Below, piece by piece: positions 1,173 to 53,480 of a stretch of DNA of 64,000 bases. The first letter of the stretch is position 1. Every line of letters begins with the position of its first letter. The position numbers and the translations under genes were made by a program. Origin of the DNA: Rhodospirillaceae bacterium (GTDB lineage Bacteria > Pseudomonadota > Alphaproteobacteria > Rhodospirillales > UBA2165); NCBI GenBank assembly GCA_038127535.1, contig JAYPHU010000010.1:21786-85785 (forward strand), written 5' to 3'. The notes beneath the pieces are model-generated. The model was not told the origin of the DNA and did no database searches. It saw nothing but the letters and a program-made list of their open reading frames with translations.

Positions 1173-2918
1173 CTACGGTCTTATCTTGGAGTCCACGAGT
1201 TGCTTCAGCGCTGAATTTGTCAGCCTGGACTGCTGAATTGTTTTCTCATTGCCAAGTTTTCGATTTTCAACATTGGTAACAGGCGCTTCGTCTCCTTGGG
1301 ACAAGAGCCGATTGAAGTCAAAATCATTCGGCACGCTGTGTAGTTCGAAATCGGATTTCTTCAATGACCAGTACTTAATTCCAATATTGGTCCATACATA
1401 GACCCAATAATTGAAATTGATATCAAGATTGTATCCAAGCCGGGCCGCACGTTTGGCCAGTAGAACCGCTTTTAACACAGCCAAAATATTTGCCGGCCGC
1501 TTCAGCAAAAAGATCATTCGCAGGAACATCATCTTGCGGCTTTCAGCGTTGCCCAATTGAAGCTTTAAATATTCAAGCGGAGATCCGTACCCCACCCCGT
1601 CAATAGGTACGAACAGTTTACTTTCCACAATTCGGTCCACGTGGTTTTTAAATCTTGCCAGTTGGAATTCCGCGTCCGTGTATTTGCGGATAAAGTCGAT
1701 AAATCCGTCGGCCAACGCCTCGGAACCCTGCAGGTACCTGACATTAGTCGTTATTTTCCGCCGGACCGTCGCGCTTTCATCATCCGACACGAGACGATCC
1801 GTCCGCTTCATCCTCGCGTAAAGCGGTGTACCCGGCAGCGCCATCAAAAAGGATGGATCGCCGCCAATCGTCCCGGTATCCCGCATAAAATCTAATGTTT
1901 CATCAAAAACAGTGGCTGTATCCGAGTCAAATCCGAAAATGAAACCCGGTGCGATGATGAATCCGTAAGACTGAATTGTCATTACAGCCGTCTCTAAATC
2001 CTTCGTGTTTTGAACCTTTGCAGTTTCTAATAAGGAGTTCTGATTGACGGACTCAAGGCCAATGAAGACGATCGAAAACCCGGCGCGCCTCATTTTGTCC
2101 ATAAGGTCCGGGAACTTGTACAGGTTGATCGTCAGCCAGGTGAATATGGAAATCTTGGCGTTGACTCTTGTCCTCCATTCAAGAATGGCATCCACGCACT
2201 TGCGGGCCCATGCGGTGTCTCCAATGAAGTTGTCGCAGGCAAATTGGAACTGAGTAATCCCCAGCCGGAAATACTCGTCCAACTCCGCCACGATGATTTC
2301 CGGATTCTTATTATTGGCACGGTTATTTCCCGGTAATACCCGAATATCGCAAAACTCACACAGGAAAGGGCAGCCCCGAGACACCTCGACTACGGCACCG
2401 TAATATGTCGGAGCCTGAGACCGGTATAAACTAAAGTCTACCGACTTCACTTTATCCATCGGATACCGCTCAGCGCGGATAATCTTTTCGATCTTGTCCC
2501 GTTCGCCAAGGGCAATTTTGTTCAAAAAATCTGGGAACGTTTGTTCCCCGTCGAGAATGAACAAATAGTCGAAAAACTCCAAATTGGATAGCTTGCCCTC
2601 TTGCTCCATGGACCAAGTAATCGGACCGCCCAACACGAAAATTGCATTTGGATACTTTTGTTTCAGCAGATCAAAAACCGGTCTAATCGACTCGATATCC
2701 TGATTGATCCCCGAAAAAGCAAAGATGTCTGCCGCCCCGATCTCATCCGGGTTGCTTATACAGCAATCATAGACCGTCATATCCCATTCGTCGGGCACAT
2801 AGGAGGCAAGTGTATAGGCCCACAGGGGACTAAAAAGTGTCCCGTAGTTTTGGTCGTAGTGAATATTTGGGGCGTGGATGAATGAAAGTTTCATTGTCGA
2901 GCGCAAATCTAACAGCAA
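1173..2918 (-). CDS. B12-binding (class B) radical SAM protein with a long C-terminal extension
   Basis: N-terminal Rossmann-like B12-binding region (FVLGGPITW). Radical SAM cluster motif VEVSRGCPFLCEFCD (CxxxCxxC). The track start at 2918 is TTG. An ATG at 2894 (MKLSFIHAPN...) is an equally plausible start. Confidence 0.85.
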   Translation of the reverse strand: MLLDLRSTMKLSFIHAPNIHYDQNYGTLFSPLWAYTLASYVPDEWDMTVYDCCISNPDEIGAADIFAFSGINQDIESIRPVFDLLKQKYPNAIFVLGGPITWSMEQEGKLSNLEFFDYLFILDGEQTFPDFLNKIALGERDKIEKIIRAERYPMDKVKSVDFSLYRSQAPTYYGAVVEVSRGCPFLCEFCDIRVLPGNNRANNKNPEIIVAELDEYFRLGITQFQFACDNFIGDTAWARKCVDAILEWRTRVNAKISIFTWLTINLYKFPDLMDKMRRAGFSIVFIGLESVNQNSLLETAKVQNTKDLETAVMTIQSYGFIIAPGFIFGFDSDTATVFDETLDFMRDTGTIGGDPSFLMALPGTPLYARMKRTDRLVSDDESATVRRKITTNVRYLQGSEALADGFIDFIRKYTDAEFQLARFKNHVDRIVESKLFVPIDGVGYGSPLEYLKLQLGNAESRKMMFLRMIFLLKRPANILAVLKAVLLAKRAARLGYNLDINFNYWVYVWTNIGIKYWSLKKSDFELHSVPNDFDFNRLLSQGDEAPVTNVENRKLGNEKTIQQSRLTNSALKQLVDSKIRP

Positions 2919-3103
2919 TCGATTTAAACAGTTGTGTTCAGGCTAAGTCACAAGAATAACTATCTTCTGATCAAATACCGCTGACAAACAGACATCGGAT
3001 AAACACTAACATGCCATCATACTTTGTCTTCTCCAACCAGGAAACTTGTGATGTTCGTCTCTCACAAACATCAGAGTATGACGGTTCCTTCTGCCGATCA
3101 TCG

Positions 3104-5020
3104 TCAGAGTTTGCAACTTTTCGTCTGAAGTTCGTAGACAGCTATAATTTGCGATACTTCACTTACCGTAGACAGGGTGCGCGACAAAAAACCCCGAGCT
3201 TCTAACTCAACAACTTTCTTCGCACACCCCATCTGAACCAACGACCGCCACTGTTGGCTGCCTGTTGTTTGGTCCGTACTTACTTCCGAAACAAGTAAGT
3301 GTGTTATTCCTTCTCTGGCCAGCCGGTTATACAGTTTAGACGGATTAGAAACCCCCGGGCGCACATCTATTTTCGCTTCTTGCACGAAATGTCCGTAGTA
3401 GAACGGAATCTGCAAATAGTAGTTCAAATTCCGGAATTCGGTATACAGCTTCGAAGACGGCGACAGATTTTGATTGGCCCACTTAATTGCCCCGTAACCG
3501 GATAGGGTTCGATCTAGATAAGCATCTTTCGATTCGGACGAAAGTTGGTACGCCACCGCGTTGATCGAAAACAAACCAAGCGCGCCCGACTGTATACCCA
3601 ATACGGCGACAAAGACGCTGACCAACAGCCGTTTTGCAAATGGCCGCGACGCCCAATGAACCGCCGCAATCGAAAACAGAGCTAAAGCGACGGGATACAA
3701 CGGCAGGAAATGACGAACCCGTTGTGAGGGCCCAAGGAAAAACCAAAGAATGTAGAGCGAAAGTAGAAACCAGCCGACAGGCAACAGCGAGGAAGAGCCT
3801 ATCTTGTCTCTGAACTTCCACAAACCAGCGATCGTCAGCGGCAACAGCAAAACCAACAATGGCCCAAAACCAACGCGTCCCGATTCCAAAATCCGTAAAC
3901 CGGCAAATGTCGCCAGGAACGGATAAGAAATCAGTCCCATCAGTGTCCGGGGAATTTCTTTTTCTTCGGTGGCGAGATACTTGGACAATGCTATGTGATG
4001 ATTCATGTCCCAGATAGCGCTGTCAGGCATTCCAAGAACCGCAAACAGTGTGGGGAAGAATGGATCGCCGCTGTTAAGCCAGTTCCAAAAATACCACTGC
4101 CCGCCGGCCAATAGAGCAACAAAACAAAATAGCCCCGCCAGCAGTACTATTTCTTTTGTCTCACATCGCTTCAAAGCGACCGCGCCAAAGGAAACGAAAA
4201 TTGCCGTCATATAGACCAGCCCGGAATATTTGGATCCGGCAAAAAATCCACAAGCCATTGCCGCGACGATTAGGAAGGATCGTTGCTGGTTCTCAGTGAA
4301 TCTTGCCAGACAGATCACAGCCAGTAGAACAAACATTGCTGAGCGGGATTCAATGTGACCGCTGCCGCTGCTGTAAATAAAGGCTGGAACGGAGGCAAAT
4401 GCCAAAACTATGGCTAGGCTCCAGTTTCGTGAAAGGTGGGGCCGAATAAACTGATAAAACAGAGCCAGCGCACCCCAGGCCGACATTGATACCCAGATGG
4501 TTAGAGCCTCTTCGCCACCAAGCGCGTATGCGGCAAGGTAGGTCATGTGGGTCATCAGTGGAATGGCACCATCCATCGCTCTCGGGATGAATTCCACTAC
4601 GCCCCGTTCCGCAAAGTGTTTCGGAATATCAAAATGATACGCAAGCGAGTCTGCATCTGAGGGCGGCGCCAGCCCCTCAATACCATCGAGGACTGCGAGC
4701 GCAACGAACGCCATAACCAGAATCCAAGTTATAGCATTAGCGGGTTCTGGCGACGTTGCAGTGACATGTGCGTGACGCCAAATGAAATAGACGCCCGGGC
4801 TGCCGACAACCATTAGAATTGACAAGGACGCCGGACCGATACCGCTAAAAACTCCGAGAAAGAATAGTGCCCAGCCCAATACGCCAAACCCGATGGCAAA
4901 CGACCAGGACGCATATTCCTGCCGGGTTAGCCGGTCCGTCACCCTAACCAACTTGAGCACAGCGGCGCCAAAGCCGATACAAGCAATGGCCTGCCAGATT
5001 GTCACCGCAAAGCCTGTCAT
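3104..5020 (-). CDS. GT-C fold integral membrane glycosyltransferase (ArnT/PMT, GT39/GT83-like)
   Basis: More than 10 hydrophobic segments. Acidic first-loop motif PPSDADSLAYHF. Soluble C-terminal domain of about 150 aa. I trimmed the track ORF (..5101) to the ATG at 5020, which forms an ATGA overlap with the stop of the upstream GT2 (tcat at 5017-5020). Confidence 0.75.
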   Translation of the reverse strand: MTGFAVTIWQAIACIGFGAAVLKLVRVTDRLTRQEYASWSFAIGFGVLGWALFFLGVFSGIGPASLSILMVVGSPGVYFIWRHAHVTATSPEPANAITWILVMAFVALAVLDGIEGLAPPSDADSLAYHFDIPKHFAERGVVEFIPRAMDGAIPLMTHMTYLAAYALGGEEALTIWVSMSAWGALALFYQFIRPHLSRNWSLAIVLAFASVPAFIYSSGSGHIESRSAMFVLLAVICLARFTENQQRSFLIVAAMACGFFAGSKYSGLVYMTAIFVSFGAVALKRCETKEIVLLAGLFCFVALLAGGQWYFWNWLNSGDPFFPTLFAVLGMPDSAIWDMNHHIALSKYLATEEKEIPRTLMGLISYPFLATFAGLRILESGRVGFGPLLVLLLPLTIAGLWKFRDKIGSSSLLPVGWFLLSLYILWFFLGPSQRVRHFLPLYPVALALFSIAAVHWASRPFAKRLLVSVFVAVLGIQSGALGLFSINAVAYQLSSESKDAYLDRTLSGYGAIKWANQNLSPSSKLYTEFRNLNYYLQIPFYYGHFVQEAKIDVRPGVSNPSKLYNRLAREGITHLLVSEVSTDQTTGSQQWRSLVQMGCAKKVVELEARGFLSRTLSTVSEVSQIIAVYELQTKSCKL

Positions 5021-6042
5021 ATTAGCCCCAACCGGCGAAGAACCGGTTCGACCAACCACGAAAATTGTTGCAGATAGCCTGCCAGGACAGCGATCACCCA
5101 TATCGAAAGGCCAAGATTGACGGCCAACTGCCAGCGAGAAGTATCCGCAGGTCCATTGCGGTCCAACTCGTCAGAAATGGCTTCGATCAGGTTGAGTGGA
5201 AGCAGCAAGATGGTCGTCGCCGCAGAAACGATATGGCGCTTGGCCAGATGAACGGATAGGGCTTCCCAATGCAACGCCAATACCCGGAATCCCAAACTGC
5301 CGATCGCCGAACCTGGATGACGTCGAAGTCCGGAGAAGTGCCGAATTGCAATTCGCAATGTGTGGCGTAAGCGGGACCTTGTTTGGCTGGTGATGCTGCC
5401 CTCGGTGATGTGGTAGCGGGTCAGCGGTTGATCAAACACGAGGCACCGCGGTCCAAACCGGTCAATGAGTCTCAGCCAAAGATCAAAATCCTGACCGATC
5501 CGCAAATCCGTATCGAAGCCGCCAGCGTCAACGATTGCATACCGACGAACAACCACCGAACTGGTGGAAATAAATCCTCGTTTGTAGAAACCATGAAACA
5601 ACATAGACCTGGAAGATTGATACCGTTTCGCAATATCCAGATAGGTTTCTTCCCCGTTTCTCTCAATCCATCCATTGTGCGCTATCAGTACCAGGTCGTT
5701 GCGATTAATCTGCTCCATGGAACGTTCAAGCTTCTCTGGAAACCACTCGTCGTCGGCATCTAGAAACGCCACGTATTCGCTCTCGGCAAATTTCAACGCT
5801 TTGTTCCTGGCGGCGCCGGCGCCTAGATTCTCCTGCTGGCTGATCCGAAAATCTATTGATCCGCAAAGAGCCCGGCAGGCCTCGGCCGTTTCAAAGGTGC
5901 CATCATCGGAACCATCGTCAACGACAATGATCTGAGATGGCGGCAGCGTCTGTTTTGCCGCGCTGGCAATGGCTCGGGTGATGGTGGCCGCCGATCGGTA
6001 CGCCGGAATTACCACGCTGATGGAGCTCAACTGGCCGGACAT
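5017..6042 (-). CDS. GT2 glycosyltransferase with C-terminal membrane anchor
   Basis: VVIPAYRSAATITRAI, IIVVDDGSDDGT, FLDADDEW (DxD). C-terminal hydrophobic segment LAVNLGLSIWVIAVLAGYL. Confidence 0.85.
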   Translation of the reverse strand: MSGQLSSISVVIPAYRSAATITRAIASAAKQTLPPSQIIVVDDGSDDGTFETAEACRALCGSIDFRISQQENLGAGAARNKALKFAESEYVAFLDADDEWFPEKLERSMEQINRNDLVLIAHNGWIERNGEETYLDIAKRYQSSRSMLFHGFYKRGFISTSSVVVRRYAIVDAGGFDTDLRIGQDFDLWLRLIDRFGPRCLVFDQPLTRYHITEGSITSQTRSRLRHTLRIAIRHFSGLRRHPGSAIGSLGFRVLALHWEALSVHLAKRHIVSAATTILLLPLNLIEAISDELDRNGPADTSRWQLAVNLGLSIWVIAVLAGYLQQFSWLVEPVLRRLGLI

Positions 6043-7697
6043 ATCTCGACATCACCAGTCCAGGGCAGGTTTGTATAGTTGGAAACTATAATTCTAAAAG
6101 ATGGCTCCGATTGACCGTAGGCCAAGGAGCGTCGCGCCGGCAAAACGGAGACTTCTCCCTTGGTCCGCAATACCACGGGGCCAATTTGGATCTCTCCGCC
6201 GCTCGCCGTTACTGGAAAAGGAGTGTGGAATACCCTGTACATCCGATGCCGGCCATTTCCCGCGACCTCGTCCCTCAAGCGAAGGCCCTCGCCCTTGAAC
6301 GCCCAACTCCGCCGCCAGCTATCGACACCGGAAAGACGCGCAACCGCGCGGGTCGTTAAAGAAAACCCGTTAGATGTGTCTTGATAGTCTGGGGAAGGTC
6401 CGCACACCTTCTCTCGAAATTCCTTCCCGTAGTACGGCTTATTCTCGGGGTAGGCCCCCTGTCCGTCTATGAGAAGAGTATTGTGACTCTTCGCCGAGAT
6501 GTCGTCTTCTCCTTCGGGTCCGTAGGACAATCTGCCGGGGTCAATCAAAACCCGTTGGTTGCCGTAGTGAAGTTCAAATCCGCCGAAATCCTGATGCGCG
6601 TGTCCGGGCTGCTCGGGCCAGCCCAGCGGCGGGGCATGCCAAATCGCTGACCACGAGCCCATTTGGCGGCGGCGCCAGGCGCTGGGTTTCAGAGAGGTTC
6701 TAGCTTCGACCCGGCAAGACAGAATCGTTTCCGGGGCCGTGCCGGACAGCCGTTCCAGCCAACCGGTCTTCTCACCAAACGCCAAACAAACCAGATCGTC
6801 CGGCGGACAGTCTGGTGAAATATCACCGATTAACGGAAGTCCGCCGGGCATGGCAAACATTGACGCTGCGGATAGGGCATGGCAGGCAATGTCTCCCAGC
6901 CTGGCCGCTTCTGGCCGGCCCGCCTCCTCTGCCGCTAACCAGCACTCGGCATACCATTTGGTCGCTAGCAAGTGGTAGTGGCTGGATCCTTCGTTGAGAA
7001 ACCCGTGGTCATCAAATATCCGGTCGGCTTCATGTAGCAAAATGCGTGAACCCGCCTCTATCCAATCGCTTGCGTTTAATTGGAGCCCCCCGAGGTACAA
7101 ACCTCTGCCGTTGTTGGCAAGATGGTTTCCTGTGTAGGCGTCACCATAAAATTCAAGCTGATCCCATATGGATGGCCCGTGGCGCGCTAATACAATATGG
7201 CTTTCATCGGCCGGTGACGGAACGCCATAGTTGCGAAAAAAGTAAAGCAAGTTTATCAGCCGTTCGGCGGCTGTATACGGATGCCACGGCCAGTTACCCG
7301 GCACCGGATTGCTATACACGGATAACCACTGACGCCACAATCTCACAGCCCAGTCAGGCTCGACATCTTTGTCATAAATCCAGGCAAAGCGGTGCAGGGC
7401 GAGCAGTTGCTCCGTATCGTGGAAACTCCGAGAATACAACTCGGCCTCCTCGCCCGGCAAAATCGTATAGGTGGCGCCGGCCAGCGTAATTTTCAGAGGC
7501 TCTAGAGGGAGCTCAAAATCCTTTTCGGCAAATGGTTGAGCGCCGGCAGGCTCCGCCAAATCGTCGAAGTCCTGCAAAAAATCGGGTTTGCGATGATGCG
7601 GCGGATTGGCTGGCCATCGGCCCAACAATCGGCCGAATACCCATCGGCGTAAAACCTTATCATGCGCGAGTGATTTGACTTTGCGAGAGATCGACAA
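6027..7697 (-). CDS. Heparinase II/III-like family protein
   Basis: HAHQDFGGFELHYGNQRVLIDPG block, typical of the heparinase II/III C-terminal domain, with an alpha-helical alginate-lyase-like N-terminal half. TTG start, and no ATG nearby. Confidence 0.7.
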   Translation of the reverse strand: MSISRKVKSLAHDKVLRRWVFGRLLGRWPANPPHHRKPDFLQDFDDLAEPAGAQPFAEKDFELPLEPLKITLAGATYTILPGEEAELYSRSFHDTEQLLALHRFAWIYDKDVEPDWAVRLWRQWLSVYSNPVPGNWPWHPYTAAERLINLLYFFRNYGVPSPADESHIVLARHGPSIWDQLEFYGDAYTGNHLANNGRGLYLGGLQLNASDWIEAGSRILLHEADRIFDDHGFLNEGSSHYHLLATKWYAECWLAAEEAGRPEAARLGDIACHALSAASMFAMPGGLPLIGDISPDCPPDDLVCLAFGEKTGWLERLSGTAPETILSCRVEARTSLKPSAWRRRQMGSWSAIWHAPPLGWPEQPGHAHQDFGGFELHYGNQRVLIDPGRLSYGPEGEDDISAKSHNTLLIDGQGAYPENKPYYGKEFREKVCGPSPDYQDTSNGFSLTTRAVARLSGVDSWRRSWAFKGEGLRLRDEVAGNGRHRMYRVFHTPFPVTASGGEIQIGPVVLRTKGEVSVLPARRSLAYGQSEPSFRIIVSNYTNLPWTGDVEICPAS

Positions 7698-7703
7698 GTG
7701 AGA

Positions 7704-8492
7704 TCAGGGCCGGCTAAAAAAGTATGTCAGTTGGTGTTCAGGCCAATTCGCCAGCAAATGATCCCGCTGCAGTCCGAACACACTGCCGCCAACATAGTTC
7801 GGGCCTCGAGTGCCGGTAGACAATGACTGATAGCCGATTTCCGCGGTTAATGTTTTTTCCCGCTTTCCCACATCAATCCCCGGGGCGCCATAGGGAACAC
7901 AAAAGTGGTGGCAAATCTGTCCCGTTTCCCGCTCTATCACTGTTTTTGAAACATAGAGCTCTTCTCGGACACTTGTTTCACTCAGCTGTCCCAGATGCGG
8001 ATGCGATACCGTATGAGACCCGATGGCCATGCCGGCGGCGATCATTGATCGGCAGTCATCCCAGGTCATAAACTCCAGGCCGTGGCGGGCCATATTCTGC
8101 CCGAACACGGCGCCCGCCTCTCCGGACCCGGGTTCAAGAGTTCGCCCGACGAATGAGGTCACCACAAAAAATGTGGCCGGTATCCCCAGTTCATCTATTA
8201 TGGGGAGAGCATGGGTAAAGCAGGACCGGAATCCATCGTCAAAGGACAGACAAAAGTACCGGCCATCCAGTTTCTCGCCGCTTTGAATAAGCGAGACTGC
8301 TGCGTCCTGAGAAACGAACTCGCCAAAGTTCTTCAAATAACGCAGCTGTCGCTCAAATCCTGCTCGCTCGTCATCAAAAACATGATGATAGTAAGGAAAT
8401 CTGATCCAGCCTGCGCTGTCGTCTATATTTTTCCCAATCGACAAGCAGCGGAGGGCAACCGATCTAAATAGGGTGCGAAGAGAGACTGACAT
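7704..8492 (-). CDS. Polysaccharide deacetylase (CE4 / NodB-homology)
   Basis: FCLSFDDGFRS (DD motif) and GSHTVSHPHL (His motif). I trimmed to the ATG at 8492 (MSVSLRTLF...), because the track start at 8651 would overlap the upstream GNAT gene by 128 nt. Confidence 0.8.
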   Translation of the reverse strand: MSVSLRTLFRSVALRCLSIGKNIDDSAGWIRFPYYHHVFDDERAGFERQLRYLKNFGEFVSQDAAVSLIQSGEKLDGRYFCLSFDDGFRSCFTHALPIIDELGIPATFFVVTSFVGRTLEPGSGEAGAVFGQNMARHGLEFMTWDDCRSMIAAGMAIGSHTVSHPHLGQLSETSVREELYVSKTVIERETGQICHHFCVPYGAPGIDVGKREKTLTAEIGYQSLSTGTRGPNYVGGSVFGLQRDHLLANWPEHQLTYFFSRP

Positions 8493-8523
8493 TAAATGTG
8501 TATTTCCCGCAGAGGCCTTGGTG

Positions 8524-11180: not shown

Positions 11181-11235
11181 GAAATGATAGCGTCGGCGCT
11201 TAAGACGGAAACTGGTTTCGTAAACGCTGTAGCGT

Positions 11236-11931: not shown

Positions 11932-12015
11932 AGTTCAAGGTTGCCATTCTTGATGGACGCTGCAGTAGTTGGAGTCATTTTCTGTATTTAAGATAGGCTA
12001 GTCCATATTCGCGGA

Positions 12016-13062: not shown

Positions 13063-13101
13063 CGTCAGTCCTAGAATCGGAATTTCCTTATCATTAAAAT
13101 T

Positions 13102-13875: not shown

Positions 13876-13943
13876 TTTGCCAGATACGCCTTTTCCAATT
13901 CATAATTTCCCACGAGAGATTCGGACCTGTTAGTAACAGCCGT

Positions 13944-16483: not shown

Positions 16484-16497
16484 AAGTACCGAGTTTC

Positions 16498-35980: not shown

Positions 35981-35985
35981 AATAT

Positions 35986-39474: not shown

Positions 39475-39504
39475 TTTAAACTCTGCCTCTTTTTATGCTT
39501 TTTC

Positions 39505-40548: not shown

Positions 40549-40571
40549 CGCTCGAAGCTGTTCGATAGAAG

Positions 40572-40742: not shown

Positions 40743-40771
40743 TTCTCGGTTCCTTTTATCTATTGAGCGGA

Positions 40772-41452: not shown

Positions 41453-41475
41453 TATGGAAAGGTTTTTATACAGCG

Positions 41476-42878: not shown

Positions 42879-42884
42879 TTAATA

Positions 42885-44207: not shown

Positions 44208-44208
44208 T

Positions 44209-45267: not shown

Positions 45268-45283
45268 TTCCGATCCTTCCGCT

Positions 45284-46414
45284 TCACTTCGAACGTCTGC
45301 GCCGGGCTACGATCAGATCGTCTGTATCATAATGCCGTGTCGCTTTCTCGCCCAAATAAGACCAGAACATTTTCGGCGATACACCATTTCCGGGCCGTTT
45401 GATTCCGAGGTTTTGTTCGGTAAAAACATCGCCTTTTCTGATTGGCTGGCGGGCGACAAGACTTTTTCGGGCAATGGGCATATTCTTTAACTCGGATTCT
45501 GTTGGAGCTTTTTTTGTTGACCCCAGCGCAGCCTCTACCTCGCGAATTTGACGTACGAATTCTATTAATTCATTTGGTATCAGAGATGCTTTATGATCGG
45601 GACCGGGCAACGTTCGGTCCAAAGTGAAATGTTTTTCGATTATTCTTGCCCCTAATGCCACAGCAGCAGGTGCGGCTGAAATTCCAAACGAATGATCGGA
45701 GAACCCGACGGTCGTTCCAAAATTTGCTCGAATTTCTCCGATTGCCCCTAAATTTAGTTCGTCGATGGGAGCCGGGTATTCAGTCGTGCAGTGCAACAAT
45801 GAAACTTGATCGGTAATCCAATCCCGAACCGAGCTTTTCATTCGGGATTTTTTGAACCCGACCTCATATCGCGTCGGCTTCACTCCTTCATGCCCAGCGG
45901 CCAAGTATCCCAACGCGGAATCGATCTCGGAAATATTCGCCATTCCGGTTGAAAGAAAAACTCGATTGGCCAAACTGCCGACGCGAACGAGCAACGGAGC
46001 GTTCGTTATTTCGCCGGACGGTACTTTGATCGTATCGAGGCCTAGGCCATACACCAGAAATTCCAGACTCAATATGTCGAACGGGGTTGAAAGAAAATCG
46101 ATTTTATTGTGGCGGGCGTGTCGGACCAATTCACGATGAGCTTCTTTATCGAGCTCCAGTTTCCGGACCATTTCGAGTTGCGATGCTTCGTTTTTGACAT
46201 TTTTCACTTGATACGAAGCCATGGGCGCGTGGCTAGATATAACTTCGTCGGGAACGAATGTCTGAAACTTAACGGCATCGGCCCCGGCCGCCGCGGCGGC
46301 TTTTATCATCGTCTTTGCCCGCCGCAGACTTCCGTTATGATTAACCCCGGCTTCTGCTATAATATATACTTTTTGATTTTTTGATTTGTTAGACAACATG
46401 ATGAACCTGGACAT
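45284..46414 (-). CDS. neuB: Nonulosonic acid synthase (NeuB/LegI-like) with C-terminal SAF domain
   Basis: VYIIAEAGVNHNG, FSDHS, and a C-terminal SAF-like RKSLVARQPIRKGDVFTEQNLGIKRPG. Alternative ATG at 46399. Confidence 0.9.
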   Translation of the reverse strand: MSRFIMLSNKSKNQKVYIIAEAGVNHNGSLRRAKTMIKAAAAAGADAVKFQTFVPDEVISSHAPMASYQVKNVKNEASQLEMVRKLELDKEAHRELVRHARHNKIDFLSTPFDILSLEFLVYGLGLDTIKVPSGEITNAPLLVRVGSLANRVFLSTGMANISEIDSALGYLAAGHEGVKPTRYEVGFKKSRMKSSVRDWITDQVSLLHCTTEYPAPIDELNLGAIGEIRANFGTTVGFSDHSFGISAAPAAVALGARIIEKHFTLDRTLPGPDHKASLIPNELIEFVRQIREVEAALGSTKKAPTESELKNMPIARKSLVARQPIRKGDVFTEQNLGIKRPGNGVSPKMFWSYLGEKATRHYDTDDLIVARRRRSK

Positions 46415-47567
46415 CGATTAGGTCGTAGAATTGTTTTCTTTTCAGATCTTCTGCATTTGTTTGCCTGAGCGTGTCCGCGATGATATTCGACGCGTTCCCA
46501 ATAAGATAAGGAGAGCTCCCGTCACAATATTTTTCTCGGAATCCCAGATCGAGGCATTTCAATAAGCCATCGCGAATAGCTTCTCGCGAGGGATCGCAGT
46601 CAACCACCGAATTGGCCCGGAGCCTTCCTTTCTGCCGATCACCTATGTTGAGCGTGGGGGTTCCAAGGATCGGCGCTTCGAGCATTCCGCTCGATGAATT
46701 TCCAACTACCGCTGCTGATAGGGCAATAGCGCCGAGATAGAAGGTCTGACCAAGCGATTCAATAACCGCAACTCGTTCTGAATTCCTAGCAGAATAATCA
46801 CGAAAATAGTCGGAGATAAAATCGGACTTCGGATCGGCATTTACACCCGTAATGAGAACCATACGGTCGGGAAATTCGTCGATGGCCTTTGTGAGTTCGG
46901 TGACCGCCACCAAGTCGTCGATCCCGAGAGTGACAGGGTGATAGGTGACCAGGAAGAATTCTTCCCGGAGTTTTTGTCCTGCGCGTTTTGAAAGATCGCC
47001 CAGATTCGGAAGCTCGATACGGCCCAAAAAATCGATTCCTGGCGCACCCGATAAAATGACTCGCGCCGGGGCCTCTCCCAACTGGACAATCCTTTTTCGA
47101 TAAGCTTCCGCAGCCGCAAAATGTAGATGGGCCATTTTCGAAATTGCGTGACGAAACGATTCGTCCATTGCGCCTTCGGTAATTTCTCCGCCGTGGATGT
47201 GGGCGATTGGCACCCGCATTATCGTCGCCGCCATTGCCGCCGCCATCATCTCATAGCGGTCACCGAGAATGACCACGATCTCCGGCTTTAATCTGTCCAA
47301 CGACTCTGCCAGTTTGCCGACAGCCATGCCGACAGCATTCGCCACGGACAAATTTGTATCATCAAAAAGATCTATCTCCACTTTTTCGTGTATATCAAAC
47401 CCGTCAGCCTCGATCTCACGATAAGTAAGGCCAAACTTCTCCCTCAAATGTGCGCCGGTGACGATCCATTGCAGATCGGATTCGGGATCATCTTCGATAA
47501 TGCGCGCTAGCCAGCGTAAGTGGCCATATTCGGCCCGAGAGCCCGTTACGATACAAATAATTCGCAT
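46389..47567 (-). CDS. neuC: Hydrolysing NDP-N-acetylhexosamine 2-epimerase (NeuC/LegG-like)
   Basis: MRIICIVTGSRAEYG, VPIAHIHGGE, GNSSSG. Confidence 0.9.
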   Translation of the reverse strand: MRIICIVTGSRAEYGHLRWLARIIEDDPESDLQWIVTGAHLREKFGLTYREIEADGFDIHEKVEIDLFDDTNLSVANAVGMAVGKLAESLDRLKPEIVVILGDRYEMMAAAMAATIMRVPIAHIHGGEITEGAMDESFRHAISKMAHLHFAAAEAYRKRIVQLGEAPARVILSGAPGIDFLGRIELPNLGDLSKRAGQKLREEFFLVTYHPVTLGIDDLVAVTELTKAIDEFPDRMVLITGVNADPKSDFISDYFRDYSARNSERVAVIESLGQTFYLGAIALSAAVVGNSSSGMLEAPILGTPTLNIGDRQKGRLRANSVVDCDPSREAIRDGLLKCLDLGFREKYCDGSSPYLIGNASNIIADTLRQTNAEDLKRKQFYDLIDVQVHHVV

Positions 47568-47622
47568 CGCTTGACTCGCGGCCTTTGACGGTCATAAAAG
47601 GCCTTGTCCGAAAACATGGACG

Positions 47623-48531
47623 TTAAAAGCACTCGGATTTGTAGGTGCGCGCGATACCGTCTAGGAGCGCAACATGAGGCCGGTACCCCAAAACGGTTTG
47701 CGCCTTCGAGATATCAACATTGAAACGAGAAATCGGTTCGCGAAGATCTGGTTTTTCCGACACGACCACCTTCCCGCGACCAACCGTTTGGACGCAAGCC
47801 CCAGCAATCTCATTAATACTGACCATATTCCCGTGGCCGATGTTGAAAATGCCTTCGGCGCCACGATCGGTGACTAGGATTATTGCCTGCGCCACGTCAT
47901 CTGCGTGAACGAGATTGATGCGATCGTCAGTCGGTGGATCCAGCTCCAACTCTTCTCCTCGGCTCGCTTTGGCGAGGAAAGATGAGATCAACTTATCCGA
48001 ACTTTGTCCCGTTCCATAAATTGCCGTTGCCCTTAAAATGGAAACATGAAGCCCTTTCCCGCGCAGGTTAATAAGTACCTGCTCACCAAGCGACTTCGAA
48101 AAACCATATTCACCCAATTGTTCGCCGGAGGCCAATGGAGCATTTTCATCTTTGAGAGAGGCACCATCCGAATCAGAGTATACAATCGCGCCCGAGAGAT
48201 ATATGAGCATAATCCCCCTCTCGGCTGCCCACTCTCCCAGGCAAAGGCACGCCCGAACATTAGCGTCGAACCAATCAGGCGAACGATATCGCTGCCCGCC
48301 CTCGGGGGTCTCCGCACCGATATGCAGGAATGCCTGGACGTCCGGAAACATTTCGTCGAGTTCTTCCGCCGACTTCCAATCCGACAAATCCCAGACAACC
48401 CAACCCGGCCGATGGGAGTTTACAGATCGCGAACTGCATATGCTTTCAACCCCCCTTTGATCGAGACGGCTCAGCAAATGGCGACCAACGATACCGGAAG
48501 CGCCGCTAACAGCAACCTTGCTTAAAGGCAT
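47623..48531 (-). CDS. NAD-dependent epimerase/dehydratase (extended SDR)
   Basis: VSGASGIVGRHL and YGFSKSLGE (YxxxK). Confidence 0.8.
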   Translation of the reverse strand: MPLSKVAVSGASGIVGRHLLSRLDQRGVESICSSRSVNSHRPGWVVWDLSDWKSAEELDEMFPDVQAFLHIGAETPEGGQRYRSPDWFDANVRACLCLGEWAAERGIMLIYLSGAIVYSDSDGASLKDENAPLASGEQLGEYGFSKSLGEQVLINLRGKGLHVSILRATAIYGTGQSSDKLISSFLAKASRGEELELDPPTDDRINLVHADDVAQAIILVTDRGAEGIFNIGHGNMVSINEIAGACVQTVGRGKVVVSEKPDLREPISRFNVDISKAQTVLGYRPHVALLDGIARTYKSECF

Positions 48532-49559
48532 GCATCGTGTCGCAGAAGAGATAACGATTCGATATCCTTTTCATTAGCCGTTTCAAAATAAATTTCCTCC
48601 AAATAACGCATGGCGACTCCGTTCTTTATTTCCGGCTGAACGATGTTTTCGCGAAGAAGAAAACTGCGGATTGCGAACTCAGGATCATTGAATCCGAAAT
48701 GTGCACGAATCGCCGTCGTACCCGAGAATCGAGCATTGAACTCAAACGGAACGGGGCCGTCCGAACCGACCATTAACTGGATATTGAACGGCCCAACGAT
48801 GCCGAGGTTTTCGACGCAGTTGCGAACGACCTCGGATATATTTGGAAAATCACCCACCTCGGCAATCCATGTGTCGCCGCCTCTAAGCGCGCGCCTTGCC
48901 GTAAATGGGCCAAATAGCGTGTTATCGGACGCGACGAAGACACTGCTGGTAAATTCATAGGATAACGCCGGACTTGGCTCGGCGATCATCCTTTGGAGCA
49001 TTGGGTTCGGCACATGATCAAACAACTGGGATAATTCATCCGAAGTCTTTATCAAATGAACATTCCGCGCCGAAGAGCCTGTTCTGGATTTTAGAACAAG
49101 CGGGTACCCGAATTCCTTGGCGTCGCCTAGTGCCTCTTCATGCGAGCGCGGAACAGAAGATTGCGCATGAGGCAGTCCCAAACGCTTCAGATGGCCGACG
49201 GTTTTCCACTTGTCATCGGCCAAATCGATTATTTCAGGCCCTGATACAACGATTACCGCGCCCGTATCGCGCTCGAGATCCATCCGATGCCGGGAAAAGA
49301 ATAAAAGATCGTGTTCAGAGCCAATGAGCACGAGGTCGATGTTTTCACTGCGTAACAATTCGGCAATCTCATTGTACTTCCCATCGATTTCAAGGCGGGG
49401 TAATAAAACCGCTGCATCGGTCCAATGAAAGCCAACGGCGTTGGGCGTGATATCCGCGCCAACGATTTCGAGGTCCAATTTACTCGCTTTCAGGGCCTTG
49501 ATAATCGCCTGCCCCACGCCACCGCCAACACCGGTTACGAGTACTCTTAAAGCTGCCAC
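48522..49559 (-). CDS. ATP-grasp family ligase
   Basis: Pre-ATP-grasp Rossmann start RVLVTGVGGGVGQAIIKAL. Central GYPLVLKSRTGSSARNV. C-terminal FEFNARFSGTT, typical of CPSase-like ATP-grasp proteins. Confidence 0.7.
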   Translation of the reverse strand: MAALRVLVTGVGGGVGQAIIKALKASKLDLEIVGADITPNAVGFHWTDAAVLLPRLEIDGKYNEIAELLRSENIDLVLIGSEHDLLFFSRHRMDLERDTGAVIVVSGPEIIDLADDKWKTVGHLKRLGLPHAQSSVPRSHEEALGDAKEFGYPLVLKSRTGSSARNVHLIKTSDELSQLFDHVPNPMLQRMIAEPSPALSYEFTSSVFVASDNTLFGPFTARRALRGGDTWIAEVGDFPNISEVVRNCVENLGIVGPFNIQLMVGSDGPVPFEFNARFSGTTAIRAHFGFNDPEFAIRSFLLRENIVQPEIKNGVAMRYLEEIYFETANEKDIESLSLLRHDACL

Positions 49560-50266
49560 GGATTTTCCGCTCCGGTCATGATCCGATGTATTTTACCGAC
49601 CTCTGCCGTGCTGTGCGCATTCGAGCCAAAGGACACTCTCGCTCCCGCACTAAGACACCATTCGAGAAACTTAGATGGTTTCGGGTGGTAGCGAGCATTG
49701 ATTTCGAATGCGATGTCCGTCTCCGCAGCAAGTTCAATCACTTCTTTTATCAGGTCGTCGGGCGGAGCAACCCCGAAACGTCGGTAGCTCATGCCAAACG
49801 GATGACCGAGCACATCAATCGGGCTATTGCGCAGAGCGGCGCACATCAATTCGAACTCCATATCGATCGCCAAAGCTGCTGATCTGTTTTTTGTTCCCGC
49901 ATCGGAATCCGTTTCGCCGGGGAACCGATGGACGCTGGCCATGACTTGATCACAACAAGCAAGAATATTATCGGTGGCATCCAACGCTCCGCTTTTATCC
50001 AGGATCTTGACTTCCACCCCGACATACGCGCGACAAGGGCTCGCAGGAAGGCTGCGAATTTCGTCCGCGAATTTTGGAAACCAACCACCACTGGAACCGC
50101 GCGCGTGCTCGCTGAACGCGATTGCTATCATCCCTGTGAGAACTGCTTGATCGTACATCTCGATCGACGAGTTTTCGCCGTCGGTCCAATTTGTATGCAT
50201 GTGAAGATCGACCGGCGGAATTTCGGCGTCATTCCACAACTCTTCAACGAATCGCGGCGGTTTCAT
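49547..50266 (-). CDS. PHP-family phosphoesterase (HisJ-like)
   Basis: VDLHMHTNWTDG (HxH), FSEHA, and later His residues of the PHP trinuclear site. Confidence 0.75.
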   Translation of the reverse strand: MKPPRFVEELWNDAEIPPVDLHMHTNWTDGENSSIEMYDQAVLTGMIAIAFSEHARGSSGGWFPKFADEIRSLPASPCRAYVGVEVKILDKSGALDATDNILACCDQVMASVHRFPGETDSDAGTKNRSAALAIDMEFELMCAALRNSPIDVLGHPFGMSYRRFGVAPPDDLIKEVIELAAETDIAFEINARYHPKPSKFLEWCLSAGARVSFGSNAHSTAEVGKIHRIMTGAENPWQL

Positions 50267-51423
50267 TGGATCAAACGTTCGAACAAGGGTACGAATACGT
50301 CGCCGGACAACCCGTATTTCGTTCTTCCGTCTGCGACGATCTCGCCGAAATAGGTCATCGCCGAAACAAAAATGACGGATACCTGTTTGTAGGACTCATC
50401 GCTGCAATGGCGGATCGGTTGAAGCGCCGCAGGCAGATATTTTCCTTTTTTGGAAATATCGCCATCAAAACATATGATGCGGTCCGAGTGGATATTAGTG
50501 GAATGCAAAAAGGAATTCAGGCCATTTGTAGCGCCGTGGAAACCAACCAGCTTGCCGCGTTCAAGGTGGCTAATTACCAGTTCTTGGCCGCGGGCCACAG
50601 AGTCTCTAAAAGCATTGCCAGCTTTCACCAGACTACCTGTTTCACGTATTTTATGTAGCTTTTGTGCGGGTAAATCGGTTTTCTCGGCAGCAATCCAAAG
50701 GCTGTCTTCGTGAGAGTCAAATGCGACCGGCTCCAAACCCGCAGACCGCAAAAGGTTCAGTGCAGATTCCCTATCGAAATAAGAAAGATGTTCATGCGAT
50801 ACCACGTTCAGATCACCGGACTCGAATTGTCGCTCCGTGTCCGGAAATGACAATATTGCTCGCCCCCCTTGCCGGAGCGACCTGTGGATCTCCGTCAGAA
50901 ACGAATAGGGATCGTCCACATGTTCAAGGCAATTGAACGATAGAACCCGGTCGAATGTCCTTTGCGAAAGCTGGCGCGAAGGAAAGTAATCGGTGATGAT
51001 TTCAATCTCCTGATCCGAGCACTTTCTCAATGCAGGATCGATGACGACCGGTTTTGCGGTTTCAAATTCGTGCGCTATCTCCGCTGACACAAGTCCGGAG
51101 CCTCCACCAATTTCCAGAACGCCGGCCCCCGCACAGAAATCACCATTCTCCAAGATAAATTTGATCTGCGTGCGGCCGAGGCGATTGGCCCAGTCAGACA
51201 ATCCCGGAGGTAGCGTAAAATGGACATAACTCTCGTTTCCGTATGCCTCAACGATTTCTCGGCGCGTTTCTATCGGCGTGGTTTGCCGAAAATAACCCAT
51301 AGAATCTTGGCCAAGACTGAGCGGCAACAGCGGCCCCATCCCTGGTGACTCCTGCGGGCCGTGCCAAACAGGCAGCGACGGAAAACGGATTTCAGCTCCA
51401 CAAATTTCCAAAAAGTCCTTCAT
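50263..51423 (-). CDS. SAM-dependent methyltransferase with C-methyltransferase-type C-terminal domain (TylCIII-like architecture)
   Basis: Motif I VLEIGGGSGLVS. C-terminal LVGFHGATNGLNSFL ... FDGDISKKGKYLP, resembling the sugar C-methyltransferase accessory domain. Confidence 0.7.
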   Translation of the reverse strand: MKDFLEICGAEIRFPSLPVWHGPQESPGMGPLLPLSLGQDSMGYFRQTTPIETRREIVEAYGNESYVHFTLPPGLSDWANRLGRTQIKFILENGDFCAGAGVLEIGGGSGLVSAEIAHEFETAKPVVIDPALRKCSDQEIEIITDYFPSRQLSQRTFDRVLSFNCLEHVDDPYSFLTEIHRSLRQGGRAILSFPDTERQFESGDLNVVSHEHLSYFDRESALNLLRSAGLEPVAFDSHEDSLWIAAEKTDLPAQKLHKIRETGSLVKAGNAFRDSVARGQELVISHLERGKLVGFHGATNGLNSFLHSTNIHSDRIICFDGDISKKGKYLPAALQPIRHCSDESYKQVSVIFVSAMTYFGEIVADGRTKYGLSGDVFVPLFERLIQ

Positions 51424-53480
51424 TCAGCGAATTCTTTTGAATTTGTGGGGCGTACTTTATAGAAGAAGAAATCCGCGCTAATTTCTTCGGACATTTTTCG
51501 AAGGGTGAACCCTTTTTTTTCCGAAGAGAACTGTTCCCGTTGGCGTTCAATTGCAGTGCGCTGCTGTTCCGGCAGAAAGAACTCGTAATCGTACCGGTCG
51601 CTCGAGCTAAGCTGCGCAGGCCGGCCTTTGTACCCGCTTTGTCTCCATGCCAGCAGATCGTAGTGAAAACTTTTACGCTTCACTTCAACGAGATCGTCCT
51701 GACCGGTTAATTCAATCCGCGTCTCGGCACCGAAGGATAGCACTTCATCGCAAAGAGCCAAAAATTCTTCGGCTTCATCCAAGCCATGATCCGCTGCCAA
51801 CTCCTTGGCAACATTTAGCAAAAGCGCATTGAAGGCCTCGTAATGCTGCAAAAGTATTTCGTAGGTGTATTGATAATTGAGCTTTCCGTATTGCCCGCTA
51901 CGCAACCGCTCGAGATTGTCGGGTATCTCCCAATAATCCGCCAGCGCTCCCATGGTCGGAAAGTTTTCCAGGTCGTGATCTGCCCGAAACCGTTCGTAAA
52001 GTCTCCCGATTTCTCCGTCGCTTGATTTAGCCGCCTCGGAAATTTTTAAAATAACATCGACGGGATGAATGCCCGCTTGATAGAAAAGATGCAAATAGTC
52101 GTAATACCATTTTCGACCCCACATCATTTGAATCAGAAAGTGAACAAAGCGGAAACCGCGCAACTCATCGACAGGCATCGAAGATGTTTCTAAAACAACC
52201 TCCTGTCCCTCGAAAATAGCCCTATTCTCGTAAACGCCGAACGCATTGTCGTGCAATCGCCAACCTGTCCGCAGGAAATACTTCTCCCGCGACTCTTCGG
52301 AATCCATTTCGGTTCCCGGAAGGAGGTGGAGGTTGTAGTTAAATACTTCGGCTCCGACATCGATCATGCGCCGGATGCTGTCCAAATGGGTTTCACTGGT
52401 TTCGTTAGGCAACCCAAGAATTAGCTCGGTAAATAAGGATGCTCCCGCACCTTCGGACTGCAACGCTTTAGTCATCTCGACCACATCTTCGAGTTTAAGA
52501 TTTCGCCTCTTGATGGCTTCGAGCACTTGGGGATTGAGCGATTGCATGGAAGCCCCCACTTCGCCGATATCGCCCAAGGCGCGGGCGACGCGCAATACCC
52601 GGTCGGGTCGGCTCTTATTCCATTGAGCGGAAACATGACTAGGATAGCCGTACCTTTTCTGACAATCGCGCAGATTTTCAGCAATCGATCGGTCGCGGTC
52701 CAAGATCGAAAAATTTGCGTCTGCGATAAATAGGTTCATCGATTTCTTGCAATTACGTCCCAGGTACTCAATTTCATCGAAAACCCGCTGATCGGAGAAC
52801 CGCGCAAGCTTTCCCGTACCAATACCCCATGCGCAAAACGTACACCGGTAGGGGCACGAGCGGTTTGTTTCCAGGATTGGCACGAACGGCTCATCAAAGA
52901 ATTCATCCATTGAGCCGTTGAGGTAAGGCGACGGAATTTCGTCGAGATCCCGGATCACGTCCAATTCAGAGCCAATATGAATTCGATTATGACCCTGGAG
53001 ATCATTAATCAATGCGCCGTCCAACACATCCGATACGAAACGCTTGCGGTCGCCATTTAGCGAAAGGAAGCGTTCCACCAAGGAAGCAAATCCGCGTTCG
53101 CCTTGATTGACGACGTAAGCGTCACAAGCCGACGAAGCGGAAAAAAATTTTCGCGCCGCCTCATCATTAGCGTTGGCGCTGGTAAAATTCGGCCCACCAC
53201 CGACGCACAAAGCGTTCGGAACTTCCTGACGAGTGATGTCAAAAACCAACGCATTGAGATTTGCGTTCCAAACGTAATGGGACAGCCCAACGACATCGGG
53301 TTTTTCGCGCTTGATGGCGTCGATCATCTGTTGGGGACGCTTAAACAGACGAAATTCAAGGTCTTCGGCGACCATTTTGTCCGTGTAGGCAGCGATGTAG
53401 CCAACATTGAGCGGAAAGGTCCAAAGACTGACCTTCTCCCAATCATGCACCAGATCAGCGAGAAAAATCTTAAGGCTCAT
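51420..53480 (-). CDS. B12-binding (class B) radical SAM protein, 686 aa
   Basis: N-terminal B12-binding-like region (VVGLSHYVWN ... VGGGPNF). ETNRSCPYRCTFCAWG (CxxxCxxC). First gene after the 334-nt leader. Confidence 0.85.
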   Translation of the reverse strand: MSLKIFLADLVHDWEKVSLWTFPLNVGYIAAYTDKMVAEDLEFRLFKRPQQMIDAIKREKPDVVGLSHYVWNANLNALVFDITRQEVPNALCVGGGPNFTSANANDEAARKFFSASSACDAYVVNQGERGFASLVERFLSLNGDRKRFVSDVLDGALINDLQGHNRIHIGSELDVIRDLDEIPSPYLNGSMDEFFDEPFVPILETNRSCPYRCTFCAWGIGTGKLARFSDQRVFDEIEYLGRNCKKSMNLFIADANFSILDRDRSIAENLRDCQKRYGYPSHVSAQWNKSRPDRVLRVARALGDIGEVGASMQSLNPQVLEAIKRRNLKLEDVVEMTKALQSEGAGASLFTELILGLPNETSETHLDSIRRMIDVGAEVFNYNLHLLPGTEMDSEESREKYFLRTGWRLHDNAFGVYENRAIFEGQEVVLETSSMPVDELRGFRFVHFLIQMMWGRKWYYDYLHLFYQAGIHPVDVILKISEAAKSSDGEIGRLYERFRADHDLENFPTMGALADYWEIPDNLERLRSGQYGKLNYQYTYEILLQHYEAFNALLLNVAKELAADHGLDEAEEFLALCDEVLSFGAETRIELTGQDDLVEVKRKSFHYDLLAWRQSGYKGRPAQLSSSDRYDYEFFLPEQQRTAIERQREQFSSEKKGFTLRKMSEEISADFFFYKVRPTNSKEFAE

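Follow-up and report, generated by a model that had tools for sequence, protein, structure and literature searches.

The sequence analysed here (the window) is a stretch of 64,000 nucleotides from a Rhodospirillaceae bacterium (GCA_038127535.1, contig JAYPHU010000010.1, positions 21,786 to 85,785 of the forward strand). Approximately 53 genes were recognized in it, all on the minus strand and separated by short intergenic gaps, so that the window reads as one very long operon-like island. The island runs on past both ends of the window, as seen in flanks of about 10 kb per side, and its genes mark it as a surface-glycan island, more than 85 kb in extent and apparently transcribed one way. It bears five radical S-adenosylmethionine (SAM) enzymes, named here R1 to R5 in order of position (Table 1). 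The explanation in which we place a little more belief than doubt is that the island is made up of several portable modules, each with a radical SAM enzyme of its own, and that R5 C-methylates an intermediate of legionaminic acid.

All five radical SAM open reading frames (ORFs) lie on the minus strand where the original prediction had put them, score above the Pfam cut-off for PF04055 (44.7-63.5 bits against 29.5) and contain exactly one CxxxCxxC motif (Cys183/187/190 in R1, Cys127/131/134 in R2, Cys56/60/63 in R3, Cys211/215/218 in R4 and Cys209/213/216 in R5). The coordinates given for them hold except at the start of R1, where the longest ORF reaches 2918 from a TTG codon; public assemblies call an ATG at 2894, which is probably the true start. 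The view of this glycan cluster as unusually rich in radical SAM enzymes was also borne out, five among 53 genes having a probability of about 2e-4 under an assumed background of 1% radical SAM genes. A sixth radical SAM gene was found a few kb past the window end (L004 2602-4434; 610 residues, with weak B12-binding and DUF4070 matches). It is a paralog of R1 (52% identical), and the R1 family thus occurs at both ends of the island. None of the five enzymes of the window reached a curated NCBIfam cut-off.

The earlier assignment of R1, R4 and R5 to class B stood. Only R4 (50.2 bits) passes the gathering score of 32.1 for the B12-binding domain PF02310, with R1 (29.1) and R5 (27.4) falling short; the cobalamin domain of R5 is covered by a 488-residue alignment to TokK (residues 23-510). 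The AlphaFold models of R1 (pLDDT 84.8) and R4 (pLDDT 76.8) superpose in Foldseek on TsrM, MgmA, OxsB, AprD4, TokK and CysS across both domains, with TMq values of 0.5-0.6 against TsrM, MgmA, OxsB, TokK and CysS. By these alignments and models the three enzymes have the class B architecture, in which an N-terminal B12-type domain precedes the radical SAM core. AprD4 has the class B fold and is not known to bind cobalamin, so that the architecture alone is no proof of cobalamin use.

R2 and R3 had been called twitch/SPASM-type proteins, of which the twitch part can be kept. Their accessory domains hold five cysteines in R2 (7, 26, 27, 66 and 70) and four in R3, fewer than the seven of SPASM domains, and both are consequently regarded as single-cluster twitch enzymes and not as full SPASM proteins.

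Table 1. Radical SAM enzymes and associated genes of the window, grouped by module (positions are those of the window; aa, amino acid residues; bit scores are followed by the cut-off where one applies).
Feature	Position	Strand	Basis or remark
R5, class B radical SAM enzyme of TokK/ThnK/CysS/KedN5 type, 686 aa	51420-53480	-	Pfam radical SAM and weak B12-binding; TokK alignment
R4, class B radical SAM enzyme, 499 aa	37975-39474	-	B12-binding 50.2 bits, radical SAM 50 bits
R3, BtrN-like twitch radical SAM enzyme, 319 aa	29638-30597	-	C-terminal SPASM/twitch match; BtrN 4m7t
R2, radical SAM enzyme with N-terminal twitch, 403 aa	18641-19852	-	SPASM match at residues 7-70, radical SAM at 125-280
R1, class B radical SAM enzyme with DUF4070-like tail, 573 aa	1173-2894	-	Pfam, motif, public gene calls
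Legionaminic-acid-type nonulosonic acid (Leg) module	40772-56848	-	NCBIfam and Pfam
Leg module: dehydratase	55808-56848	-	
Leg module: LegC	53815-54972	-	NCBIfam 503, cut-off 420
Window-specific genes: methyltransferase (386 aa), PHP-domain protein, PylC-like ATP-grasp ligase, epimerase/reductase	47623-51423	-	between R5 and the NeuC-type gene
Leg module: NeuC	46389-47567	-	NCBIfam 416, cut-off 236
Leg module: NeuB	45284-46414	-	NCBIfam 443, cut-off 400
Leg module: CBS-nucleotidyltransferase (CBS-NTP-transferase)	44209-45267	-	
Leg module: WbuX amidotransferase	42885-44273	-	NCBIfam 365, cut-off 203
Leg module: HisF/HisH	41476-42878	-	accompany WbuX
Leg module: cytidine monophosphate (CMP)-sugar synthetase	40772-41452	-	nearest PseF, 144 bits, below 206
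NusG-like protein and helix-turn-helix (HTH) regulator	57130-58385	-	Pfam; head of Leg operon
Conserved unannotated ORF, 56 aa	40572-40742	-	upstream of MptE-like gene; no family match
MptE-like/Maf-PseD-like protein, putative nonulosonic acid transferase, 347 aa	39505-40548	-	Pfam MptE-like, 63.8 bits
Short-chain dehydrogenase/reductase (SDR), R3 partner	28922-29635	-	Pfam adh_short
KdsB-like CMP-ulosonic acid synthetase, R3 partner	35207-36028	-	NCBIfam PRK13368 306.6 bits, cut-off 255
Arn/Gtr-like block around R1	407-9570	-	Pfam
R1 block: family 2 glycosyltransferase (GT2)	407-1141	-	
R1 block: C-type glycosyltransferase (GT-C), PMT_2-like	3104-5101	-	
R1 block: GT2	5017-6042	-	
R1 block: heparinase II/III-like		-	
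R1 block: polysaccharide deacetylase	7704-8651	-	
R1 block: GNAT	8524-9570	-	
Phosphonate module	24679-28015	-	iron-containing alcohol dehydrogenase (Fe-ADH), methylphosphonate synthase (MPnS), NTP-transferase
Phosphonate module: Fe-ADH	24679-25860	-	nearest Phn_Fe-ADH, 295 bits, below cut-off
Phosphonate module: predicted MPnS, 453 aa	25851-27212	-	MPnS 6b9s E 1.4e-84; 2-hydroxyethylphosphonate dioxygenase (HEPD) 6b9r E 6.2e-67
Phosphonate module: NTP-transferase	27209-28015	-	

Amongst solved structures, R5 showed clear homology to TokK (7kdx, E 1.8e-50, residues 23-510) and CysS (E 3.2e-37), and its nearest NCBIfam model is KedN5 (NF033712), which describes methylcobalamin-dependent C-methylases. 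TokK and CysS are reported to methylate an unactivated sp3 carbon several times in turn (bioRxiv 10.1101/2021.07.10.451909; PMC8992657). TokK, ThnK and CysS have in common two tryptophans that other class B methylases lack, namely Trp76 below the corrin and an active-site residue, Trp215 (bioRxiv 10.1101/2021.07.10.451909). The residues of R5 aligned to them, W71 and W218, are invariant or nearly so among 20 family members. The succession of cobalamin domain, radical SAM core and helical C-terminal region in R5 is also that of TokK and ThnK, which act in carbapenem C6 alkylation, and of CysS, which acts in cystobactamid alkoxy extension. In contrast to these enzymes, which belong to antibiotic clusters and use pantetheinylated substrates, R5 is encoded with primary surface-glycan (legionaminic acid) genes in Proteobacteria and candidate phyla.

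The R5 family comprises more than 120 full-length clusters at 46% identity or above, and a scan restricted to one genome per species recovered 24 loci. Within the clade of 44-66% identity, genes for legionaminic or other nonulosonic acids lie no more than 10 kb from the R5 homolog in 14 of 18 loci; the remaining four, without a Leg match, are on contigs that are short or cut near the gene. R5 is placed between or beside the dehydratase (LegB), LegC and NeuC genes in the window as well as in loci L007 and L012. The hosts include Paramagnetospirillum kuznetsovii, Magnetospirillum, Magnetovibrio, metagenome-assembled genomes (MAGs) of Rhodospirillales, single-cell genomes of Pelagibacteraceae, Desulfovibrio and a Falkowbacteria MAG, and the association of R5 with Leg genes spans four phyla. 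The N-acyl transferase differs between these loci (PglD-like, formyltransferase or GNAT) and R5 is constant. The suggested link of the class B enzymes to ulosonic acids is thereby upheld for R5. Given the homology to TokK and CysS, the marker tryptophans and the Leg gene neighbourhood, the most likely role of R5 is the cobalamin-dependent C-methylation of an intermediate on the way to legionaminic acid.

R5 genes of 44-50% identity were also observed on SAR11-type Pelagibacteraceae contigs from single cells and MAGs (L013, L016, L018, L019 and L021), some of them by homologs of NeuB, NeuC or the CMP-synthetase. The B12 economy of SAR11, as usually described, makes a cobalamin-type enzyme there noteworthy.

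The Leg module of the window contains LegC, NeuC-type, NeuB-type and CMP-synthetase genes, as a legionaminic acid pathway should. With the Campylobacter-type pathway (LegB, C, H, G, I, F and PtmE, with Maf/PseD transferases) it shares LegC, the NeuC- and NeuB-type enzymes, the CBS-NTP-transferase, the CMP-synthetase and the MptE/Maf-like protein. It differs in that LegH is missing and ATP-grasp, PHP-domain and methyltransferase genes occupy that position, and in the addition of two class B radical SAM enzymes and the 56-residue ORF. No hexapeptide-repeat protein of the LegH/PglD N-acetyltransferase type was found in the window, whereas one is present in L006 and L119. With LegH absent and an ATP-grasp ligase in its place, the 7-N-acyl group may be an acid attached by ATP-grasp ligation instead of acetyl. 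The NusG-like and HTH gene pair at the head of the operon also precedes the Leg genes in L006, L007, L012 and L032.

R4 represents a family of more than 120 clusters at 70-77% identity, found in Alphaproteobacteria, Opitutae and others. In all six contexts read (the window, L007, L009, L030, L032 and L119) it stands beside an MptE-like protein of about 350 residues and an ORF of about 56 codons. The order small ORF, MptE-like gene, R4 is kept in five of these, L009 being arranged differently, and in four of the five the triad comes directly after the Leg CMP-synthetase gene, the Leg genes of L032 lying apart. Among the contexts, L119 has a canonical and complete Leg operon, in which LegH and PtmE are joined by a GFO-family oxidoreductase and an SDR. 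The placement after the CMP-synthetase suggests that the substrate of the triad is the completed CMP-sugar or the product of its transfer. The MptE-like protein has a weak NCBIfam match to PseD (43 bits), although Maf and PseD proteins are about twice its size (640 positions in the PseD model, compared with 347 residues). As to R4 itself, its NCBIfam scores to HpnJ, BchE, the methylases of ribosomally synthesised and post-translationally modified peptides, and HpnR are all weak and similar, and Foldseek ranks methylases and non-methylases together.

The small ORF of the triad reads MSDVLKGNF...RLGGSIAFVSKKKVKW. Its homologs (39-73% identity) adjoin the MptE-like gene in L007, L009, L010 and L030-33, upstream of it in every homolog locus except L009, and belong to Magnetospirillum sp. 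ME-1, Xanthobacteraceae and Rhodospirillales loci; a gene of 57 codons is annotated at the corresponding position of the 4.1-Mb genome of L119. An accessory subunit and an acceptor peptide are both conceivable roles for the 56-residue protein. An apparent fusion of the small ORF to the MptE-like gene in L007 was rejected, as the long ORF there is in another frame.

R3 aligned with BtrN (4m7t) at E 8.4e-24 over residues 40-288, that is, nearly its whole length. The accessory cysteines of R3 are Cys223, 241, 285 and 288 (Cx17C...Cx2C), a spacing like that of C169, C187, C232 and C235, which we take to be the auxiliary-cluster cysteines of BtrN. BtrN is the 2-deoxy-scyllo-inosamine dehydrogenase of butirosin synthesis and the founding member of the twitch-domain radical SAM enzymes. 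A metagenome scan gave 80 loci with R3 homologs of about 60% identity, and neighbours were counted in the 42 loci of at least 5 kb. A KdsB-like cytidylyltransferase was present in 35 of them and an SDR in 31, usually directly beside R3; some loci have a 2-hydroxyacid dehydrogenase, an FkbM methyltransferase or a HisC-like aminotransferase as well. NeuB was found in one of the 42 and MPnS in none. Whereas BtrN is encoded with aminoglycoside genes, R3 occurs in aquatic bacteria in the company of a KdsB-like cytidylyltransferase and an SDR, and these gene partners indicate that its substrate is probably an ulosonic acid or a nucleotide sugar. R3 is proposed, from this homology and company, to be a radical dehydrogenase of a secondary hydroxyl on such a sugar or ulosonic acid. 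Membership of R3 in the phosphonate module, whose nucleotidyltransferase gene lies about 1.6 kb away, was considered and rejected on the absence of MPnS from all 42 R3 loci.

The twitch of R2 is at the N-terminus and aligns to that of BtrN, where it is C-terminal. R2 scores 105.8 bits against the N_Twi_rSAM model (NF033640; cut-off 170), and the twitch-before-core architecture is present. It is a rare protein, with 29 representative clusters at E 1e-30 or below and a best full-length relative that is 55% identical; its wider N-terminal-twitch family includes distant relatives with a fused GT2 or GT1 domain. In the window R2 is accompanied by two IolG-like oxidoreductases and a HisC/CobD-like pyridoxal phosphate (PLP) enzyme, and one related locus, L050, was seen.

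At 48-67% identity, R1 has homologs in Rhodospirillaceae, Gemmatimonadota, Deltaproteobacteria, Sumerlaeota and Planctomycetota; its best relatives, like those of R5, are from Rhodospirillales. One of them (P0263, on a 391-kb contig) is surrounded, as in the window, by a small GT2, a PMT_2-type GT-C, a heparinase II/III-like protein, a deacetylase and a GNAT protein, plus GtrA, and two more distant homologs in Gemmatimonadota and Deltaproteobacteria lie among other glycan genes. By analogy, the R1 block would follow the logic of ArnC, ArnD and ArnT, with transfer of a sugar through a lipid carrier. The highest NCBIfam matches of R1 (MJ_1487, PhpK and BchE) are of similar size and all far below their cut-offs. 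Its only solved relative at the sequence level is the methylase MgmA (9ccb, E 2e-5), and direct sequence matches of R1 and R4 to TokK and CysS are marginal at best. Homologs of R4, R5 and R1 were found on contigs of identical length, and they probably share contigs in other genomes.

The phosphonate module was recognized in the original prediction, and it consists of Fe-ADH, MPnS and NTP-transferase genes only. Phosphoenolpyruvate mutase (PepM) and phosphonopyruvate decarboxylase (Ppd) were not found by Pfam and NCBIfam searches of the 53 ORFs, and a six-frame search for the EDK(X)5NS motif in the window and about 10 kb of flank on each side was likewise negative; the module is consequently incomplete locally. 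The 2-His-1-Gln ligands, together with a Phe and an Ile that hold the Gln (H148, Q152, H190, F162 and I184 in NmMPnS), are said to have been described by Born and colleagues in 2017 as distinguishing MPnS from HEPD. At the corresponding 6b9s columns the window protein has H, Q, F, I and H, whereas HEPD 6b9r has Y and G at the Phe and Ile markers. On these residues the product of 25851-27212 is assigned as a methylphosphonate synthase, which would form the P-methyl group by C-C cleavage of 2-hydroxyethylphosphonate (2-HEP), so that no radical SAM enzyme is needed for it. Glycan-type neighbourhoods with MPnS have been described before in Rhodospirillales and SAR11 (PMC9381506). Like the MPnS clusters of Nitrosopumilus, SAR11 and Rhodospirillales, the window combines a marker-bearing MPnS with Fe-ADH and nucleotidyltransferase neighbours in a glycan and sulfation setting; unlike them, it has no PepM or Ppd in its 64 kb or in the flanks read.

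In the explanation that we favour, the Leg module would produce a CMP-activated legionaminic acid of the 5-acetamidino type, and R5 would add one or more methyls to an sp3 carbon of a Leg intermediate, using methylcobalamin and a 5'-deoxyadenosyl radical; the N-acyl side chain and the C9 methyl are candidate sites. The 56-residue protein, the putative MptE/Maf-like transferase and R4 would then act on the finished sugar or the transfer product, the R4 step being either methylation or else a rearrangement or elimination like those of AprD4 or OxsB. R3 may oxidise a secondary hydroxyl of a Kdo-like (3-deoxy-D-manno-octulosonic acid-like) ulosonic acid that is activated by the KdsB-like cytidylyltransferase. 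The SDR beside it would re-reduce the ketone, giving a net epimerisation, and in some genomes an aminotransferase may aminate it instead. R2, the two IolG-like oxidoreductases and the HisC/CobD-like PLP enzyme would act on another sugar or a cyclitol. R1 may modify a sugar that is loaded on a lipid carrier by the small GT2, the deacetylase and the GT-C, with transfer taking place outside the cytoplasm. Methylphosphonate would be made by MPnS and attached via the neighbouring nucleotidyltransferase without a radical SAM enzyme.

Several observations weigh against this explanation. The Pfam B12-binding matches of R1 and R5 are sub-threshold, and R5 scores 195.5 bits against the KedN5 cut-off of 700, which makes it a relative and not a member of that family. 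The substrate-binding Arg280 of TokK is replaced by Ser in R5, which would nevertheless fit the expectation of a different substrate. The best sequence match of the R4 profile to a solved structure is AprD4 (E 5.6e-6), a non-methylating sugar diol dehydratase. The R3 trio is rarely near NeuB or KdsA, so that an ulosonic acid as the substrate of R3 is a guess. All substrates and products named above for the five radical SAM enzymes are inferred from the observed architectures, homologies and neighbourhoods. To our knowledge no natural legionaminic acid carries an extra C-methyl, and C-methylated legionaminic acid was absent from the literature searched, in which no paper tying radical SAM or cobalamin enzymes to nonulosonic acid or surface-glycan synthesis was found either. 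While the enzyme classes are familiar, their context in a nonulosonic acid pathway is apparently undescribed.

The original prediction had expected C-methylation from the class B enzymes in general. This is supported for R5, with its TokK/CysS homology and both tryptophans, whereas R1 and R4 are as close to non-methylases as to methylases. A reading in which R1, R4 or both perform a radical dehydration, deamination or rearrangement on a sugar, with R5 as the sole methylase, is accordingly a serious contender that falls somewhat short of an even chance. It draws on the AprD4 match of R4, on the leading NCBIfam models (HpnJ and BchE for R4; MJ_1487, PhpK and BchE for R1, all far below cut-offs) and on Foldseek, which places OxsB and AprD4 level with TsrM, MgmA, TokK and CysS; class B is also reported to include ring contractions and rearrangements (PMC8992657). 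AprD4, OxsB, HpnJ and BchE have the two-domain fold and comparable weak scores in common with R1 and R4, but their aminoglycoside, oxetanocin, hopanoid and bacteriochlorophyll contexts are unrelated to those of R1 and R4, and no curated cut-off is reached. The clear B12-binding match of R4 (50 bits), in contrast to AprD4, which is not known to bind cobalamin, and the methylase MgmA as the sole sequence-level solved relative of R1 argue against it. Most characterised class B enzymes are, moreover, methylases.

Far less probable, to the point of being nearly dismissed, is the reading that all three class B enzymes modify a single glycan together and that one of them carries out P-methylation or a Fom3-like C-methylation of a phosphonate. 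The presence of an Fe-ADH, an HEPD/MPnS-type enzyme and a nucleotidyltransferase is in its favour, as are weak similarities to PhpK and Sden_1168 (40-65 bits), and the substrate of Fom3 is cytidylyl-2-hydroxyethylphosphonate. Yet the MPnS markers account for a P-methyl group by cleavage of 2-HEP, the best scores to PhpK (TIGR04479, cut-off 600) and Sden_1168 (NF038361, cut-off 575) are 65.5 bits for R1 and 52.2 for R4, about tenfold too low, and no class B gene adjoins the phosphonate genes. In the loci read, Leg or Arn-like blocks surround the class B homologs and MPnS homologs were not detected, and even R3, the nearest radical SAM gene, is without MPnS in 42 of 42 loci. The suggestion of P-methyl chemistry by a class B enzyme is therefore abandoned, and so is that of one joint tailoring line, since each radical SAM enzyme sits in a different conserved module that is found separately in other genomes. 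An improbable though less remote reading is that R5 lies near Leg genes merely through packing of hypervariable islands and that its true substrate is another sugar, a lipid or a peptide. Such islands are mosaic and transposase-rich (for example L118), distant R5 relatives (33-34% identity, L024-L029) are mostly without Leg genes, and the four close-clade loci without a Leg match, on their short or cut contigs, could be counted on the same side. Chance packing is hard to reconcile with the position of R5 between or beside LegB, LegC and NeuC in L007, L012 and the window, with an association found in four phyla, and with the retention of R5 while the N-acyl transferase changes.

Nonulosonic acids, legionaminic and pseudaminic acid among them, are found on flagella, capsules and lipopolysaccharide and shape recognition by phages, grazers and the immune system. 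All of the modifications known to us are N- or O-acylations or N- or O-methylations by ordinary enzymes. If C-methylation by R5 is correct, B12-dependent radical C-methylation would be a new kind of nonulosonic acid modification, and TokK/CysS-type chemistry would extend from antibiotic pathways to primary surface-glycan synthesis. Bacteria carrying R5 would display alkyl-extended nonulosonic acids so far undescribed, and the surface structure of abundant aquatic bacteria would be tied to cobalamin supply. It is suggested tentatively, with rather more reserve than the modular explanation itself, that R5 stands for a widespread and unnamed family of cobalamin-dependent C-methylases in legionaminic acid synthesis, with carriers that include Rhodospirillales, magnetotactic bacteria, SAR11-type Pelagibacteraceae, Desulfovibrio and candidate phyla, and that the R4 triad constitutes a separate B12/radical SAM step in nonulosonate transfer. 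The radical SAM genes mark separate, recurrent and uncharacterised modules, of which four are conserved and testable (three in strains already in culture), namely R5 together with the Leg genes; the small ORF, MptE-like gene and R4; the KdsB-like gene, R3 and SDR; and R1 with GT2 and GT-C. The occurrence of MPnS inside an apparently sulfated, nonulosonate-containing glycan cluster bears on where marine methylphosphonate esters, the fuel of aerobic methane production, originate.

The remaining genes agree with a surface-glycan island. Five conventional SAM methyltransferases were counted by Pfam within the window, one fewer than the minimum of six once proposed. Two KdsB-like cytidylyltransferases, an ABC exporter and an acetylation pair of MBOAT and AlgX-like proteins were also found. 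A sulfotransferase-like protein with a weak Sulfotransfer_3 match and an adenosine phosphosulfate (APS) kinase (22906-24647, minus strand) adjoin the ABC exporter, which suggests that the glycan is sulfated. Beyond window position 1 (L116 4376-9554) lie genes for a TylC3-type nucleoside diphosphate-sugar C-methyltransferase (Methyltransf_13/14), an initiating Glycos_transf_4 protein, an SDR and a dehydroquinate-synthase-like sugar-phosphate cyclase. Taken with the BtrN-like, IolG-like and PLP enzyme genes, these hint at a cyclitol or branched-sugar component.

Three proteins of 580-650 residues on the minus strand (9567-11327, 30594-32342 and 35986-37926) have no Pfam match, and one of them matches the TIGR04326 surface-carbohydrate family weakly. 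Homologs of two of these recur in L008, L012, L050 and L061, and the proteins could be unrecognised glycosyltransferases or polymerases. A protein of 1297 residues (61120-63864 of the window, minus strand, continuing in L004 6108-10001) is recognisable only in a C-terminal domain resembling ribulose-phosphate 3-epimerase and in a weak class II aldolase-like stretch; about 880 N-terminal residues are unmatched. In L118, the contig of an R5 homolog that is 66% identical (P0013), the equivalent island is interrupted by six or more genes for transposases, integrases or recombinases, IS1595 and Transposase_mut types among them, and a fragment of IS1595 was also observed upstream of the window's island (L004 142-372).

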